From the NCBI GenBank assembly GCA_947380295.1, contig CANCQK010000007.1:19933-83932 (forward strand): 64,000 nt of DNA, written 5' to 3'. Below, piece by piece: positions 778 through 55,522 of the stretch. The number at the start of each line of letters is the position of its first letter. Position 1 is the stretch's first letter. The stretch comes from Bdellovibrionales bacterium. GTDB taxonomy: Bacteria > Bdellovibrionota > UBA1018. The notes below the pieces were generated by a model, which had not been told where the DNA came from, ran no database searches, and worked only from the letters and a program-made list of their open reading frames with translations. The position numbers were made by a program, and so were the translations under genes.

Positions 778-1479
778 TTAACGGTCGTTTTCTGGGAATA
801 ATTGGCGTGGCGCAGTATCGAGGCTTTCGTGGTCTGGATCCGATTCAAACAGTTCGAGGTCAGACCCTCGAACCGAATTCCAGCCCAAGTCTTCTAAACA
901 ACGAAACAGACGAATGAGATAAGACTCAACTCCATTGACTTGGCTGGGGTGAATTCCGTGAATTAATACGGTCGCGTGGACGTCTCGCCCTGCCTTTGCG
1001 CTCGCACGAAGACCCAGGCAGAGTCGCTTGTTGCTATCTTTATCTTCAGAGTTGCAGGATTGAAGGTGCTCTCCGAATCGATCCTCGGCAGTTCGAGTTC
1101 CGAATTTGCCTGAAGAAACCAACCCAATATAACGATGAATTTTGTGGAGTTCTCCGCTCGCATGAAGAGCCTGTACTTTTTCGCGGAGTGGTTTTAATTT
1201 TTCTAGAAAGTCGTCACGGCTGACTGAGGTTGAATCAAGATCGACCTTTTCGAGTTTGAACTCATCTTTTCCGTCATGAATTAAGTAGACTGCGCTGGAT
1301 AAAGAGGCAGATTCGGGAGAGGGGTGAAACACACCAACCTTGTGAGTGTGACCTGGAGTAGAGATTTTCCTTGGCTCTTCAGTTCTTGGTCGCTTATTTC
1401 CATAGGCTGAAGTTGCAGAGGGGGTTGTGAACCAGAACGATAGAATGGAAACGAGCAAGACTTTTGAAAACAAATTCAT
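778..1479 (-). CDS. Secreted protein with GIY-YIG-like nuclease motifs
   Basis: Signal peptide; AVYLI ... RYIG ... R(FGE)H ... VESYLI ... GWN in GIY-YIG order, with a ~50 aa insert between VY and YIG. Confidence 0.55.
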   Translation of the reverse strand: MNLFSKVLLVSILSFWFTTPSATSAYGNKRPRTEEPRKISTPGHTHKVGVFHPSPESASLSSAVYLIHDGKDEFKLEKVDLDSTSVSRDDFLEKLKPLREKVQALHASGELHKIHRYIGLVSSGKFGTRTAEDRFGEHLQSCNSEDKDSNKRLCLGLRASAKAGRDVHATVLIHGIHPSQVNGVESYLIRLFRCLEDLGWNSVRGSDLELFESDPDHESLDTAPRQLFPENDR

Positions 1480-1673
1480 AAATGTCGGGGGAAAGTAGCA
1501 TCGATTATGTAAAAAGTCTAATGCTTAGATCTACTTAATGGGGTTCATGAACTTGAACGTCGGTGGTTGCCTCAATACTGGAGTTGAATTGTTTTTCTGA
1601 TTTCCTTCTGGTTCACTCGATAAAATTCGGTTACAACTAATTTAGTTTTTATTGCAACCTTTGGGGGAAACTT

Positions 1674-2426
1674 ATGAAAAAAACAAAACAAGTTTTGGTG
1701 GGTTTAGTTACTTTTATGAGCGGAAGTTTGGCCTATGCAGACCGGGTTGAAGTGGCGGTTGAGACGCTTTTAGCACCGACCGTGGGATATGAGCAAAAAA
1801 ACAATATTCAAGTTGTTCTCTACGGAGAGCTTCCGAACAAGTGCTACAGTCTCGACGAATATCAGGTTGAAAAGTCTGCTGACCTAAAAATAGTCCGAGT
1901 TCGCCAGTATGCTCAACGTGAAGACTCTGGGATGTGTGCAGACCCAGCTCATTTGCCTGAAGATTGGAAAACTCCTGTGCCTTTTACGACTGAAGTCTCC
2001 GTGGGGCATTTAGAAGTGGGCTCAGTGAATTTCATTTATCAAAGGTCAGATCGGAGTCTAGGTGAACGTTTGGTTCACGTCGCTCCAAATACAACGCTTT
2101 CAGTAGATTCCCTGCCCTATGCCGCGATCTCAAATGTGGGTGTCGCCGACGTAATTAATGGGACTCGGGATATTCAGGTGACTTTGTCCGGCGTTCTCAA
2201 TTCGTCTTGCACAGTCTTGGACGATCAAGTCAAAGTCGATCAGGAGTCCGACGTTTTTGTTTTAAAACCTACGGTAAAGACAGATCGAGCTGCTAAATGC
2301 TTGCAGGTTTTGGTGCCCTTCACAAAACGAGTGAATTTGGGTCGAGCCACTGCTGGGCGCTATCTCATCCACGCCCGGAGTATGAACGGCAGATCTTTGA
2401 ATCGGGTGGTTCTAGTTTCAAAATAG
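1674..2426 (+). CDS. Secreted hypothetical protein with two tandem Cys-paired beta domains
   Basis: Signal peptide (AYA); halves share IQV.L.G.L...C and C...VPFT..V..G motifs; GGGG SD-like sequence upstream. Confidence 0.75.
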   Translation: MKKTKQVLVGLVTFMSGSLAYADRVEVAVETLLAPTVGYEQKNNIQVVLYGELPNKCYSLDEYQVEKSADLKIVRVRQYAQREDSGMCADPAHLPEDWKTPVPFTTEVSVGHLEVGSVNFIYQRSDRSLGERLVHVAPNTTLSVDSLPYAAISNVGVADVINGTRDIQVTLSGVLNSSCTVLDDQVKVDQESDVFVLKPTVKTDRAAKCLQVLVPFTKRVNLGRATAGRYLIHARSMNGRSLNRVVLVSK

Positions 2427-2462
2427 CGGGTTTTTTGATCGGGATTTTGGTAAAGAAGCGAA

Positions 2463-52966: not shown

Positions 52967-54730
52967 ATGAAAAGTCAGTTTAGTTTAGAGAAGTTGAATC
53001 CTAAGATCGTTTTTAGGGCGGTGAGCCTAGCCTTGGTAGTGCTGCGAGCAGGGTATGGGGCTATTGCTTTTGCTGATTATTATGACATCGCTCGAGGAAA
53101 TCCCCTTTTGGTCTATAGCCCGGCAGATGTGGCATTGAGGACAGATATTTTCGGGTGGGATCATCAGGCCTATGAGACGGAGATTGCTTCAATTGCCCAG
53201 CGCTACTGCGTAGATACGGGTTTTCTTCCGTTCTATCCAAACGGCGCACGAATCGACTTTGATTTGGGAACATTTAAGGACGAAATTGAGATTTCTTCCT
53301 TGAATGGAAAAGTTCGGGTTGATAGGGCGCAATCCGAGATTGCGGTGTTGGGTACCTATGACTCTCCTGAGCGGATCCTTTTGAATACTGAGATTGAGCA
53401 AGTTCATCGGGAGCATCGACCTTACTTCATTTACCAGCAGCAGAAGGACTACCTCCCGATCACTTTTTCCCGTTTGGTGTGTTTCCACAAGAACTCCGGT
53501 CCTCCTGTTGTGAGTGGGAAGTTCGCGGCAGCATATCCTTCTGGTGGTATTGTCTTTGAAGATCGAGATGTCGAGATGTCGAATCCTCCGGCATCGATCG
53601 AAATTCGTTATCATCTGCCTACTCAAGAAATTACCCTGGGCGATTTACATGGTAACGCTCTCAAGTTGCTTTATTTTCTAGTGAGAGAAGGTATTTTTAA
53701 GATAAAAAGTGATGATTACTTCGAGTTTTGCAATATTTATGAGGAAGAGTCTCTGAGTGTTGCGTCGGCGTGGTTTTCTTTTCAGGGTGGCCCTGTTTCT
53801 GATTTGGATTCAATCAAGGTCGCCAAACTAGGTGCCATTTTAGAACGAATTGAAGTTAATCCTGCGCCCCCAAAAATTAGGCTGATTGGAGATACGCTTT
53901 CAGATCGGGGTGCTAACGATTACTTTACACTTAAAATTATTAAAAAATTGGGTGTGGCCCATGTTCCACTTGAAATTATTCTTTCTAACCATGATCTCGG
54001 ATTTATAGAATTCATACTAAATCTTTCTAGTTCTCCTCAGTCTTTGAATCCTGCGGATCTTTCAGAGCAGCTCGAACTTCTGAAGAGTAATAAGGTGGTC
54101 AAACCGAATGATTCATTGATTCGGATGGTTTTATCGGTGGTAGCCCTTCCTGAGATTTGGCCAGAAATTAATGAGATTTTCTCGAATTATTACCTACGGG
54201 CTTTGAAAGTTGTTTCAGTATCTGAAAATCCTGAAACGCAGCAGTTTGCGTACTTTTCTCATGCTTGGACAGGGCTAGAGGCAGTCGAAGCCTTGGCTAA
54301 AAGCTATGAGATTAAGGGGTGTTCGCACCTTGATCTGCGATTTAGTCGAGAAATGTTTAAGTTTTGCGTTACACAAATTAACCAAAAATTTAGGGATGAG
54401 CTAGTTACGGGAGACTTTCCAAGTCAAGGAATAATGCGACTGGATGAGCAAAGTCAGCAGTGGTTAATGTTTTTAGATAATTCGTTTTTAAAGCCAAATT
54501 TATCAAAAATTCCTTTGCTTTATTCGATTTGGAATCGTGGAGAGTATTGTTCTAGGAGAGAAGGCCATATTGCCTTACGGACATGGGTTCAAAAAATCGA
54601 GGGTCATTCAGTTCATTATTTATTTGGCCACGTTGGAGAGGATGCTCCATTAGGGAGCGGTAATTTAGATACTCATCTAGGTAAGTCCGCCACGGACCTT
54701 TCGGGAAATTATCGGATTTACCGCTTCTAA
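52967..54730 (+). CDS. Secreted metallophosphoesterase, Legionella WipA/WipB-like phosphatase domain
   Basis: ITLGDLHGNALKLLYFLVREG, RLIGDTLSDRGANDYFTLKI, EIILSNHD, FSHA, IWNR, FGHVG, LD..LGK. Confidence 0.8.
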   Translation: MKSQFSLEKLNPKIVFRAVSLALVVLRAGYGAIAFADYYDIARGNPLLVYSPADVALRTDIFGWDHQAYETEIASIAQRYCVDTGFLPFYPNGARIDFDLGTFKDEIEISSLNGKVRVDRAQSEIAVLGTYDSPERILLNTEIEQVHREHRPYFIYQQQKDYLPITFSRLVCFHKNSGPPVVSGKFAAAYPSGGIVFEDRDVEMSNPPASIEIRYHLPTQEITLGDLHGNALKLLYFLVREGIFKIKSDDYFEFCNIYEEESLSVASAWFSFQGGPVSDLDSIKVAKLGAILERIEVNPAPPKIRLIGDTLSDRGANDYFTLKIIKKLGVAHVPLEIILSNHDLGFIEFILNLSSSPQSLNPADLSEQLELLKSNKVVKPNDSLIRMVLSVVALPEIWPEINEIFSNYYLRALKVVSVSENPETQQFAYFSHAWTGLEAVEALAKSYEIKGCSHLDLRFSREMFKFCVTQINQKFRDELVTGDFPSQGIMRLDEQSQQWLMFLDNSFLKPNLSKIPLLYSIWNRGEYCSRREGHIALRTWVQKIEGHSVHYLFGHVGEDAPLGSGNLDTHLGKSATDLSGNYRIYRF

Positions 54731-54733
54731 ATT

Positions 54734-55522
54734 TTACAGGCTTTTTGTTCGTTCCAGATACGTACTAAATTCTTTTTTACCGATGTAGATGAGAGGAATG
54801 CGTTGATCTGCTTCCCATTTGTCCCAAAGCGCTCTTTTATGTCTTGATGAAAGGTTCGTGTGAGCCAACGAGGGGAGCTGATCCATGACTTTCTTATATT
54901 GCGAAGTATTGATCAGTGTGCAGGTCATTGCGCACTTTTTAGCTTTTTTTCGCTCCCGATGCCTATCCGAGGTGGGTGAGATTCCACTGCTAGTGGTTTC
55001 TTCTAATCCAGGGGATTCAGGGCAAAGCTCCCTGGGTGTGATGAGTTCTAAACTACCTGAAGTCGTGCGGGGTGAATACGAGGAACGTCCAGATTCCATT
55101 TCACTCAGCTCATCTGTCAAAGAATCATGAATTGCAATGAAACCCGAGTCTTGCTCAAAAATGAGTTCTTCGGTGGGGATGTCTTCTTCTTGCAATAGGT
55201 TCTCCAGGTTGGAGTGGATTCGTTCAAAAAGTTCCTTTTGTGTCGGGGTTATTTCTTCGTATTCACTCGGCGTTAGCGCTTCGACTGGAGAAAAAGACTT
55301 CGCGTTCGGATTAAGTTTGGGGGGGAGTGTCTCTTCAGGGAATATTTTTTCTATCGATGCTTCAATCCTAGCGTAGATCTCTCGCTGTTCTGGGGACAGG
55401 GTCTCAACCTCAACTTGGGCTTTATGAGGAGTGCTGGATGGATGGGATATTAGGGGAAGCAGGACTGCATACAAAAAATATGAATAGCTCATCATTGAAT
55501 TACTTTCCTCTCGAATTTGCAA
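54734..55522 (-). CDS. Acidic, probably secreted protein with PAM2-like motif
   Basis: Hydrophobic N-terminus (likely start 55495), two internal helical repeats, KLNPNAKSFSP, basic RHRERKKAKK patch. Confidence 0.7.
   Translation of the reverse strand: MQIREESNSMMSYSYFLYAVLLPLISHPSSTPHKAQVEVETLSPEQREIYARIEASIEKIFPEETLPPKLNPNAKSFSPVEALTPSEYEEITPTQKELFERIHSNLENLLQEEDIPTEELIFEQDSGFIAIHDSLTDELSEMESGRSSYSPRTTSGSLELITPRELCPESPGLEETTSSGISPTSDRHRERKKAKKCAMTCTLINTSQYKKVMDQLPSLAHTNLSSRHKRALWDKWEADQRIPLIYIGKKEFSTYLERTKSL

Follow-up and report, generated by a model that had tools for sequence, protein, structure and literature searches.

Bdellovibrionota have been studied as predators of bacteria, and a stretch of 64,000 nucleotides from a draft genome of this phylum raises the question of why such an organism should keep, between its housekeeping genes, predicted exported proteins whose domains would normally be expected to act in a cytoplasm or nucleus. 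The stretch (hereafter the window, C7:19933-83932, i.e. contig CANCQK010000007.1) belongs to the Bdellovibrionales assembly GCA_947380295.1, denoted here G000 (2.84 Mb in 31 contigs, C1, C2 and so on), and genes are named below by their first window position. A preliminary description drew attention to at least seven such open reading frames (ORFs), annotated as a GIY-YIG-like nuclease (778), an ankyrin and Cys-motif protein (12236), a colicin-type DNase (22672), an F-box protein (33872), a Ser/Thr kinase (39401), a WipA-like phosphatase (52967) and a protein with a PAM2 motif (54734), and proposed that the organism lives in or preys on eukaryotic cells and delivers them as effectors by a Sec-dependent route. 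In our analysis part of that observation is confirmed and part of its interpretation gains support. The reading that we favour, with modest confidence, is that the window encodes Sec-exported, horizontally acquired proteins, a core group of which (the F-box protein with its FGE domain, the Wip-type phosphatase, the kinases and perhaps the PAM2 protein) is aimed at eukaryotic cells. In at least four of the flagged proteins there are modules for which all known partners or relatives work in the eukaryotic cytoplasm, namely 33872, 52967, 39401 and, less surely, 54734.

All seven ORFs are open at the positions given, and all are predicted by a codon-usage gene caller trained on G000 (2447 genes, 92% coding). 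Signal-like N-termini were called with a heuristic of our own that scores the n-, h- and c-regions (cut-off 3.4), not with SignalP or Phobius. None of 13 window proteins assigned by Pfam to cytoplasmic families reaches the cut-off, and most of the evident exported window proteins pass it (penicillin amidase, glutathione peroxidase, a DUF3015 protein and a matrixin lipoprotein), an OmpA-like protein being missed. Across the proteome 759 of the 2447 ORFs (31%) pass, 543 (22%) without later membrane helices; within the window 21 of 49 ORFs pass without a later membrane helix. The Sec-type N-terminus ascribed to all seven flagged proteins is found on five (778, 12236, 33872, 39401 and 52967), the remaining two (22672 and 54734) having weak ones. 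The leaders recur among relatives: of the 19 proteins in the 778 family 16 score as signal-bearing, as do all six of the 12236 family and 23 of 32 of the 33872 family, and the nine members of the last family that fall below 3.4 are all leaderless. Leaders are likewise present on all three Wip paralogs, on two of three paralogs of the window kinase and on a paralog of the DNase encoded on C23 (score 5.33).

The WipA-like assignment of 52967 proved correct. WipA_Phos (PF21663) matches the protein at E=2.8e-32 (112.5 bits against a cut-off of 27), and among PDB sequences it matches WipB (5nny) at 1e-24 and WipA at 1.2e-17. The translation contains GDLHGN, GDTLSDRG and SNHD, which we take to satisfy the metallophosphatase motifs GDxHG, GDxxDRG and GNH[DE], and GDLHGN aligns to WipB. 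The NCBIfam model NF043030, "Dot/Icm T4SS effector Wip" (T4SS_Wip, T4SS denoting the type IV secretion system), matches at E=4.7e-56 with 190 bits, below its cut-off of 300. A protein search with 52967 returned 39 proteins, 33 distant and six close, three of the six being from G000. None of the 33 distant relatives scores as signal-bearing, and in nearly all of them GDLHGN lies within about 42 residues of the N-terminus; their labels include "Dot/Icm T4SS effector Wip", Tatlockia sp. and Candidatus Aquirickettsiella sp., the labelled ones being three Legionellales-type metagenome-assembled genomes (MAGs) and one fungal record. In the six-member clade with the three G000 copies, the phosphatase is instead preceded by a hydrophobic leader and roughly 200 additional residues. 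As far as sequence comparison goes, the two groups thus differ at the end of the protein that is concerned with delivery, in just the way predicted by the hypothesis of a Sec-dependent route. The predicted protein is best described as a homolog of the Wip phosphatase domain and not as a member of the "Dot/Icm effector" class, because the draft genome has no match to VirB4 or TraG-D_C and the protein has a signal-like N-terminus instead.

The F-box assigned to 33872 is upheld by a family profile and by the predicted fold; what had been overlooked is that a domain of the FGE-sulfatase type (FGE, formylglycine-generating enzyme), which shares the C-type-lectin (CLec) fold, forms most of the protein (Pfam match at E=3.6e-10). 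About ten paralogs with 62-78% identity are encoded in the genome, and 31 relatives were found in the protein collection. When ten diverse members were compared with PF00646, nine matched at E<=1 (best 8.5e-7), and one relative of 33872 carries a precomputed PF00646 match. A profile of the 55-residue region built from the ten diverse members finds FBXW7 (1.9e-4), Legionella AnkB (2e-4) and FBXL2 (0.0046) in the PDB, and F-box proteins or AnkB make up 20 of its 31 PDB rows at E<=10. It replaced a profile made from paralogs only, which produced a spurious repeat match to CagY ("YLDCVS"). Membership of the F-box family appears to hold by way of these relatives, the window copy taken alone not qualifying. 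The AlphaFold model of 33872 (pLDDT 84.4, pTM 0.80) shows helices at 51-60, 63-72 and 74-93 (pLDDT about 86-94), followed by the FGE/CLec fold. By a fold search of the model over 48,161 PDB representatives, the top 15 matches are FGE/CLec-fold proteins with Z 11.6-21.9, the best being variable protein 1 of Treponema denticola (Z 21.9); Mtd and TaqVP, two further variable proteins of diversity-generating retroelements (DGRs), are also among these matches. The F-box of FBXO42 superimposes on model residues 44-95 with Z 6.7 and a root-mean-square deviation of 2.0 Å over 52 residues, FBXW7, FBXO3, FBXL17, Skp2, FBH1 and AnkB match at Z 4.5-5.7 (AnkB at 4.5), and of the 16 fold rows limited to residues 41-98, F-box proteins account for 10, Skp2 and the AnkB-Skp1 complex among them. 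The family carries, in our view, a predicted F-box, for which SKP1 binding is putative. A literature search for an F-box combined with formylglycine and a signal peptide found no such fusion among the results listed.

The kinase call for 39401 is likewise sustained: Pkinase (PF00069) matches at E=1.5e-22 (80.7 bits against 31.7), and HRDIKPLN of the catalytic loop and DFG are present and align with 3q5i, the top PDB row, which is named only "Protein kinase" (3.5e-10); the PDB matches listed are almost all eukaryotic kinases. The protein has two paralogs in the genome, one with a heuristic score of 5.30, and its gene is present in the congener G323 at 88% nucleotide identity, against 94-96% in the flanks. 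On the minus strand of window positions 39401-51243, metH, an unassigned ORF, a fusion of a family 2 glycosyltransferase (GT2) with a methyltransferase, a GT87-YdjC fusion, a multi-pass membrane protein and the kinase follow one another tightly, neighbours either overlapping or lying no more than 44 bp apart; instead of standing alone, the kinase may be transcribed together with this upstream string.

For 54734 the PAM2 call holds at the level of a motif. The decapeptide LNPNAKSFSP, which presumably fits the PAM2 consensus, is the sole match to the strict pattern in the proteome and such matches are absent from 50 shuffles, a loose pattern occurring at chance (2 against 1.76 expected). The only homolog, in G323 (on C64; 59% amino-acid identity), keeps KLNPNAKVFSP and then, some 157 residues in, meets two in-frame TGA codons; the gene is 76% identical to its G323 counterpart at the nucleotide level beside a 95% identical metH. 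The homolog in the congener is either fast-evolving or decaying.

A census over the whole genome couples such domains to Sec-type N-termini well above the base rate. It comprises the ORFs found by genome-wide scans with Ank_2, F-box, Pkinase and WipA_Phos together with those added by paralogy, and is not a Pfam census of the whole secretome. The scans yielded three Wip-like genes, six kinase ORFs, nine ORFs with Ank_2 (seven of them Pfam-confirmed) and one further F-box protein above the cut-off, in which the F-box lies directly behind the signal. Among 26 Pfam-confirmed eukaryote-like ORFs, 20 bear signal-like N-termini, against 31% of the proteome (hypergeometric P=1.7e-6); with one count per paralog family the figure is 11 of 14 (P=3e-4). 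By class, signals are found on six of seven ankyrin proteins, the single further F-box protein, seven of nine F-box-FGE proteins, all three Wip proteins and three of six kinases; all nine F-box-FGE proteins would pass if a conserved internal start, MKK[LF]I, were used.

The repertoire is not a general property of relatives. WipA_Phos occurs in three of 301 sampled genomes of the phylum (G000, one congener and one genome of another genus), an F-box above the cut-off in nine of 61 genomes of the family and in none of 14 controls, and the F-box-FGE subfamily at E<1e-30 in the genus only (10 copies in G000, two each in G328 and G323, none in G201). Two single frames outside the genus (g1) may be recorded here. 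At G301:C4:466226-466900, in another genus, an F-box match (E=1.1e-4) and an FGE match share one 361-aa frame, so the F-box-FGE architecture as such is not confined to g1. At G087:C12:26713-28377, in another genus of the family, Ank_2 and WipA_Phos matches share one 615-aa open frame, i.e. an ankyrin-Wip fusion.

The export machinery that the preliminary description suggested looking for is encoded. Five ATPases of the T2SSE family and four secretins resolve into four systems: a type II secretion system (T2SS) operon on C8 (GspC, GspD with its N0 domain, GspE, GspF and pseudopilins), a Tad locus on C1, type IVa pilus genes on C6 and a small secretin-ATPase pair on C16. Its view that delivery does not rely on classical type III or type IV secretion signals agrees with our search, in which VirB4, TraG-D_C and TssC (the last for the type VI system, T6SS) gave no match in the 93.7%-complete draft, single hallmark families being searched for each system, and the single FHIPEP match is the flagellar gate.

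Comparison with G323, whose flanks are 91-95% identical, bears on how the genes came to lie where they are. Four loci are missing at their places in the congener: 778 (821 bp between the flanks against about 116 bp in G323), 10891 with 12236 (a 4.0-kb segment; G323 joins window position 10690 straight to 14708), the F-box gene with an adjoining REP-associated tyrosine transposase-like (RAYT-like; REP, repetitive extragenic palindromic) gene (2.5 kb, with about 118 bp in its place) and the Wip gene with a DUF819 gene (3.6 kb). Each of the window's three tRNA genes lies next to a flagged locus. The mobile element that precedes the F-box gene (its ORF matches NCBIfam NF047646 at E=9.3e-9 and Pfam Y1_Tnp at E=0.0014) has elsewhere in G000 eight copies of 918-1049 bp (one cut by a contig end) with 83-86% identity and four shorter ones with 76-77%. 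The GC content is 0.51-0.56 for F-box-FGE genes and 0.43-0.44 for Wip genes, against 0.482 +/- 0.027 for the genome. Judged by these comparisons, the flagged genes are accessory islets of different origins. Their description as stand-alone genes applies to part of the set; Wip and PAM2 genes are adjacent, the kinase closes a same-strand gene string and F-box paralogs elsewhere are clustered. As a separate observation, most of the penicillin-amidase gene (about 37643-39388; 37033-39393 was compared with G323:C10) is unmatched in G323, which seems to have lost the gene. The features are collected in Table 1.

Table 1. Genes and other elements discussed in the text (window positions, unless a contig is named; signal scores by our heuristic, cut-off 3.4)
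Feature	Position	Strand	Signal score	Remarks
Signal-bearing protein, 233 aa	778..1479	-	3.59	small family with GIY-YIG-like pattern
Signal-bearing protein, 386 aa	10891..12051	-	3.46	no Pfam match; shares 4.0-kb G000-specific segment with 12236
All-alpha protein, predicted exported, 761 aa (from Met14)	12236..14521	-	4.28 (databank start Met14)	no recognised fold; C-terminal SSC[VI]PGVDHRI[IL]HGL block
tRNA-Val(gac)	22582..22656	+		16 bp from DNase gene stop
Colicin/pyocin-type HNH DNase, 203 aa	22672..23283	-	1.87	PF21431; weak, atypical N-terminal hydrophobic stretch
Multi-copy mobile element	32643..33682	-		RAYT-like ORF 32916-33635; directly upstream of F-box gene
F-box-FGE protein, 321 aa	33872..34837	+	5.76	signal 1-23; predicted F-box ~44-95 (nt 34001-34156); FGE/C-type-lectin-like ~95-321
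tRNA-Leu(taa)	34910..34998	-		73 bp past F-box gene stop
Eukaryote-type Ser/Thr kinase, predicted exported, 501 aa	39401..40906	-	5.30	~190-residue N-terminal region, then kinase core with HRDIKPLN and DFG
tRNA-Leu(gag)	51299..51383	-		edge of variable DUF819/Wip/PAM2 segment
Wip-type (WipA/WipB-like) metallophosphatase, 587 aa	52967..54730	+	4.38	extra ~200-residue N-terminal domain; GC 0.427 (3rd percentile)
Acidic Ser/Pro-rich protein, 262 aa (253 from Met10)	54734..55522	-	2.48 (from internal Met only)	PAM2-like LNPNAKSFSP at nt 55286-55315
T2SS operon	C8:88-103 kb			T2SSC; Secretin + Secretin_N + GspD_N0; T2SSE + MshEN; T2SSF; two N_methyl proteins; PilM_2-like
DGR cassette	C26:765-3226	- (reverse transcriptase, RT)		variable region (VR) 1012-1148, ending target gene; Avd-like ORF 1288-1683; template region (TR) 1848-1984; RT 2003-3226

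For the two nucleases we find no evidence that they are directed at eukaryotes. The colicin DNase call itself is secure: Col-Pyo_DNase (PF21431) matches 22672 at E=6.6e-26 (91.3 bits against 27), the PDB matches are colicin E7/E9 and pyocin chains (4e-18 to 7.5e-14), and the catalytic His and Asn residues (HH..N..H) are kept relative to 6ere_B. Its best NCBIfam match is the C-terminus of an antibacterial T6SS DNase (1.3e-18), and its gene lies within a contiguous block with 91% identity in G323; because it resembles antibacterial T6SS DNases and is conserved in the congener, bacterial predation or competition suits it better. No small gene that might confer immunity was called beside either DNase copy (the spacers at 22672 are 130 and 93 bp), a negative that does not extend to overlapping small ORFs, of which no Pfam scan for the immunity family was made. 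The GIY-YIG-like call for 778 is plausible by its conserved columns and unproven by Pfam. The protein has 18 relatives among 1.84 billion representatives and no homolog in 60 genomes of the family. In the family alignment Y117, G119, R134, H138 and E185 are invariant and Y65 and N201 nearly so, columns (Y..YxG..R..H..E..N) that we take to match the GIY-YIG pattern, with the tyrosines about 50 residues apart as against about 10 in that pattern. PF01541 has no match to 778 at E<=10 and matches one of the 19 family members (E=0.0029), a PDB sequence search gave nothing for 778 or its family profile, and Protein Atlas matches to GIY-YIG at 0.85-0.86 are leads only. Both proteins are more likely to be putative secreted nucleases against bacterial prey or competitors.

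No ankyrin repeats could be found in 12236: it has no Ank match in Pfam at E<=10, the genome-wide Ank_2 scan misses it, and Protein Atlas matches to Ank reach only 0.83 and serve as leads. The AF2 model consists of helices throughout (pLDDT 70.5), with a best Foldseek match to the PDB at E=0.11. Five full-length homologs share 33-63% identity, and the C-terminal Cys/His block is strikingly conserved among them. A copy of the mobile element (C9:89078-90117) adjoins a paralog of 12236 (C9:87629-89092).

According to the reading that we favour, the flagged genes are small accessory genes that entered the genome of a freshwater Bdellovibrionota bacterium by separate insertions, and they form part of a set of at least 26 such ORFs across the genome. 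Their products would cross the inner membrane by Sec and leave the cell via the encoded T2SS, in vesicles or upon lysis, to act in the manner of exotoxins or effectors on a eukaryotic cell, perhaps a protist that is host, prey or grazer. Inside that cell, SKP1 and cullin would be brought by the F-box to substrates held by the lectin-like domain, and host phosphorylation would be altered by the phosphatase and the kinases. What the analysis shows directly is the structure of the genes, the identity of the domains, the signal-like N-termini with their conservation, the patchy occurrence and sites of insertion, and which secretion-system hallmarks are found. Export, the T2SS step, entry into the eukaryotic cell and every target are what we infer from the sequences and models described above.

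A number of points weigh against eukaryotic targets, in addition to those named below for proteins that would stay in the envelope. The signal calls rest on a crude heuristic and no dedicated predictor, and two of the seven N-termini are weak. The window F-box lies below the Pfam cut-off (E=0.054; 13.9 bits for the whole protein and 17.5-17.7 as a piece of 56-60 aa, against 20.5), and a three-helix match at Z<8 may reflect a common arrangement. PAM2 (PF07145) matches 54734 at E=0.13 with 12.5 bits against 20 and on the basis of ten residues, and a PDB sequence search with a 36-aa PAM2 piece gave no match. Ankyrin repeats occur in 46 of 61 genomes of the family, with G000 in the middle of the range; since they are common across the family, they say little on their own. 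The proteins have no identified route across a eukaryotic membrane, and at 93.7% completeness an undetected secretion system is possible. The public sequencing runs that best match a 9.9-kb stretch are lake-water metagenomes and not samples of host material (lake water metagenome, share 0.39; "metagenome", 0.21; all others below 0.2), and no RNA run is among the matching runs. Finally, metH, MTHFR, the flagellar gate and pili are retained, so this is not the reduced genome of an obligate intracellular organism; no TLC nucleotide transporter was matched in the genome by a search that had no positive control and hence provides no evidence of absence.

The rival explanations differ mainly in where the proteins would act. 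They could be the weapons of a classical bacterial predator against its prey. After export by Sec they would be set free in the prey periplasm or cytoplasm, where nucleases digest prey DNA and kinases and phosphatases act on prey proteins; the F-box-like helices would be a mere linker on a lectin-like binding domain. The organism is indeed Bdellovibrionota-like at the level of the phylum, as had been proposed, since clusters at >=90% identity to its EF-P and CarD contain NCBI records of Bdellovibrio sp., a Bdellovibrionia bacterium and a Bdellovibrionota bacterium; about 22-31% of its ORFs are signal-bearing, type IV pili and Tad are present as in predators, the DNase is akin to antibacterial ones, and of the flagged genes the congener keeps those for the DNase and the kinase. 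To our knowledge, however, and going by what is known of SCF (SKP1-cullin-F-box) ubiquitin ligases and of poly(A)-binding protein, F-boxes, Wip phosphatases and PAM2 have no bacterial partners. The labelled relatives of the Wip protein are of Legionellales type apart from the fungal record, 298 of the 301 phylum genomes do without Wip, and the proteins that the F-box profile specifically retrieves bind SKP1, AnkB being one of them, all of which makes a purely prey-directed set unlikely. That the eukaryote-like genes are an artefact of assembly or binning, derived from contigs of another organism, is hardly credible; several have atypical GC content and codon usage, yet all seven lie among housekeeping genes on one 138-kb contig, their flanks are collinear with the congener at 91-95%, their paralogs are scattered over many large contigs, and contamination is estimated at 1.33%.

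Delivery by an unrecognised contact-dependent machine (a Tad-like killing apparatus, an unassembled T4SS or T6SS, or a contractile injection system), with hydrophobic N-termini that are incidental or target the envelope, would be compatible with a draft that is 93.7% complete in 31 contigs, with a search by single hallmark families and with the FHA-domain proteins of the Tad locus and an RHS-repeat gene on C1. We consider it distinctly improbable: no T4SS, T6SS or injectisome hallmark was found in the draft, the signals are conserved over whole families and paralogs, and they are present exactly where T4SS-borne relatives are without them. The proteins might also be envelope residents for the cell's own use, i.e. 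immunity or self-protection proteins or surface binders that never leave it. The periplasm offers no obvious ATP or substrates for an ATP-dependent kinase and a PPP-type protein phosphatase. The F-box is moreover kept between signal and lectin domain in relatives at 46-50% identity, and the genes were inserted recently and do not belong to the envelope core, so that we hold such residence to be improbable. It is nonetheless favoured by several F-box-less relatives of 33872 that are lipoproteins by their signals, by closest fold matches that are surface or periplasmic proteins (variable protein 1 of T. denticola, PorK, PvdO), and by the DGR of the genome, which diversifies a sister lectin-like family. 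In the available part of one report, FGE-like periplasmic proteins are proposed as T6SS immunity proteins (10.1101/2021.05.21.445229), and a self-protection role of an ankyrin protein in Bdellovibrio is attributed to Lambert et al. 2015 in the accessible text of PMC6561590.

Within the reading of exported proteins aimed at eukaryotic cells, a more specific history can be imagined, which is rather unlikely to hold as a whole. The lineage would have directed its secretome at eukaryotic cells, captured effector modules that other bacteria inject by T4SS and re-fitted them for Sec and the T2SS by means of a signal and an N-terminal entry or targeting domain (the Wip clade), and the F-box proteins would hijack SCF ligases from a DGR-type FGE/C-type-lectin scaffold, perhaps as once DGR-driven "programmable degraders" whose hypervariable C-terminal pocket chooses host targets. 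The C-terminal block is indeed hypervariable among the F-box-FGE paralogs, where DGR variable proteins vary. The DGR on C26 looks complete and has a 137-bp TR/VR pair with 14 of 18 mismatches at TR adenines and an Avd-like ORF (NF033474, E=2.9e-10, below the cut-off). VR-like copies with 72-79% identity lie at C4:39916, C4:129831, C11:78204, C11:38154 and C19:38316, and the targets are Lcl_C-type lectin-like C-termini, found also on ORFs with ankyrin or IBR-like modules. By its sequence the element still looks active, its apparent targets being a sister lectin-like family fused to ankyrin and IBR-like modules. Lcl_C-type ends (Legionella collagen-like protein C-terminal, all below the cut-off) with 3' ends shared with the DGR target were also noted at C4:38326-40035, C11:76923-78329 and C4:32053-32901; one ORF of this family has an IBR-like Cys-rich region (E=9.7e-5, below the cut-off) and one has ankyrin repeats, and both ORFs checked have signal-like N-termini. 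As a candidate DGR template for the F-box-FGE genes we considered an orphan piece resembling their 3' ends (C4:40525-40695) and rejected it: most mismatches are at bases other than A, no RT adjoins it, and it does not form a clean TR/VR pair. Against nine paralog 3' ends, 35-49% of its mismatches fall at adenines, with 21% expected (P 1e-4 to 0.05), and it is read as a probable gene remnant or the trace of an old relation.

Exotoxins and other Sec/T2SS substrates that act in the host cytosol are known, e.g. cholera toxin, exotoxin A, Chlamydia CPAF and Legionella T2SS substrates. The logic proposed here is the same, namely a cytosol-active enzyme, a Sec signal, T2SS release and later entry; unlike in classical exotoxins, no receptor-binding or translocation module was identified in our proteins, and cargo of this kind (F-box, PPP phosphatase, eukaryote-type kinase) is more usual among injected effectors. 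Colicins, pyocins and T6SS DNases share with 22672 the HNH DNase domain, above the cut-off and with HH..N..H. At only 203 aa, 22672 differs from them in having neither receptor nor translocation domains, with no immunity gene called next to it and no T6SS hallmark found in the genome, and its paralog has a clear Sec signal.

The closest precedent, as far as the available part of the report goes, is Chromulinavorax destructans of the Dependentiae, with signal peptides on 44% of its coding sequences and 78% of its ankyrin proteins (PMC6561590). In both cases eukaryote-like domains lie mostly behind Sec signals (78% of the ankyrin proteins there, 20 of 26 ORFs here) and the predicted secretome is large; the accessible text on Dependentiae invokes no injection system and proposes Sec as the route. 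The present organism differs from it in its phylum, in an unreduced 2.84-Mb genome with metH, MTHFR and flagellar and pilus genes, and in a repertoire that is far smaller and includes Wip phosphatases and the F-box-FGE family. Legionella WipA and WipB (PMC5454105, PMC5572681; PDB 5n6x, 5nny) share with 52967 a homologous phosphatase domain and the metallophosphatase motifs. Those proteins are type IVB-translocated and without a signal peptide, whereas here a signal and a domain of about 200 residues are present and no T4SS hallmark was found. Legionella AnkB (PDB 5k35) is matched by the F-box of the 33872 family in profile (2e-4) and fold (Z 4.5), with the F-box paired with ankyrin repeats in AnkB and with an FGE/CLec domain here. 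The F-box and BTB families of amoeba-associated Chlamydiae (PMC4209131, available in part) offer another lineage-specific F-box expansion in an environmental bacterium; the differences, as far as that source allows, are the FGE/C-type-lectin-like partner fold of the DGR variable-protein kind, the Sec signals and an organism that is no obligately intracellular chlamydia. For Bdellovibrionota and Bacteriovoracaceae, literature searches on eukaryote-like proteins, ankyrin, F-box and endosymbionts or effectors found no such repertoire described at the level of titles and abstracts; sponge-associated Bdellovibrio MAGs have been given general counts of eukaryote-like proteins in the accessible portion of PMC9944714.

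If exported proteins do reach eukaryotic cells here, effector biology would extend to a new phylum, and Dependentiae would be joined by a second, independent lineage with Sec-coupled repertoires of eukaryote-like proteins. How proteins released by a T2SS get into the eukaryotic cytosol, an old question, would become testable on a small, defined gene set. The contrast within the Wip family, with a signal here and none in 33 distant relatives, three of them labelled as Legionellales-type, amounts to a natural experiment on a change of delivery route after horizontal transfer, and the F-box-on-lectin architecture suggests a bacterial means of diversifying the substrate receptors of host ubiquitin ligases.

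The remaining genes of the window are of housekeeping or envelope type, such as dnaE, lipB, a ClC channel, MTHFR, metH, penicillin amidase, a branched-chain amino-acid ABC transporter and adenylate cyclase. As a taxonomic marker DnaE proved uninformative, the matches listed having 36-48% identity over many phyla and none being closer than 48%. Two large exported proteins of the Lnb_N/DUF7840/DUF7843/DUF7844 group (23376-25403 and 55695-57731) adjoin the DNase gene and the Wip/PAM2 pair. A signal-bearing protein of no known family is encoded at 26333-27298, in a segment (26223-27526) that has no match in G323 and lies between blocks of 91% and 95% identity.

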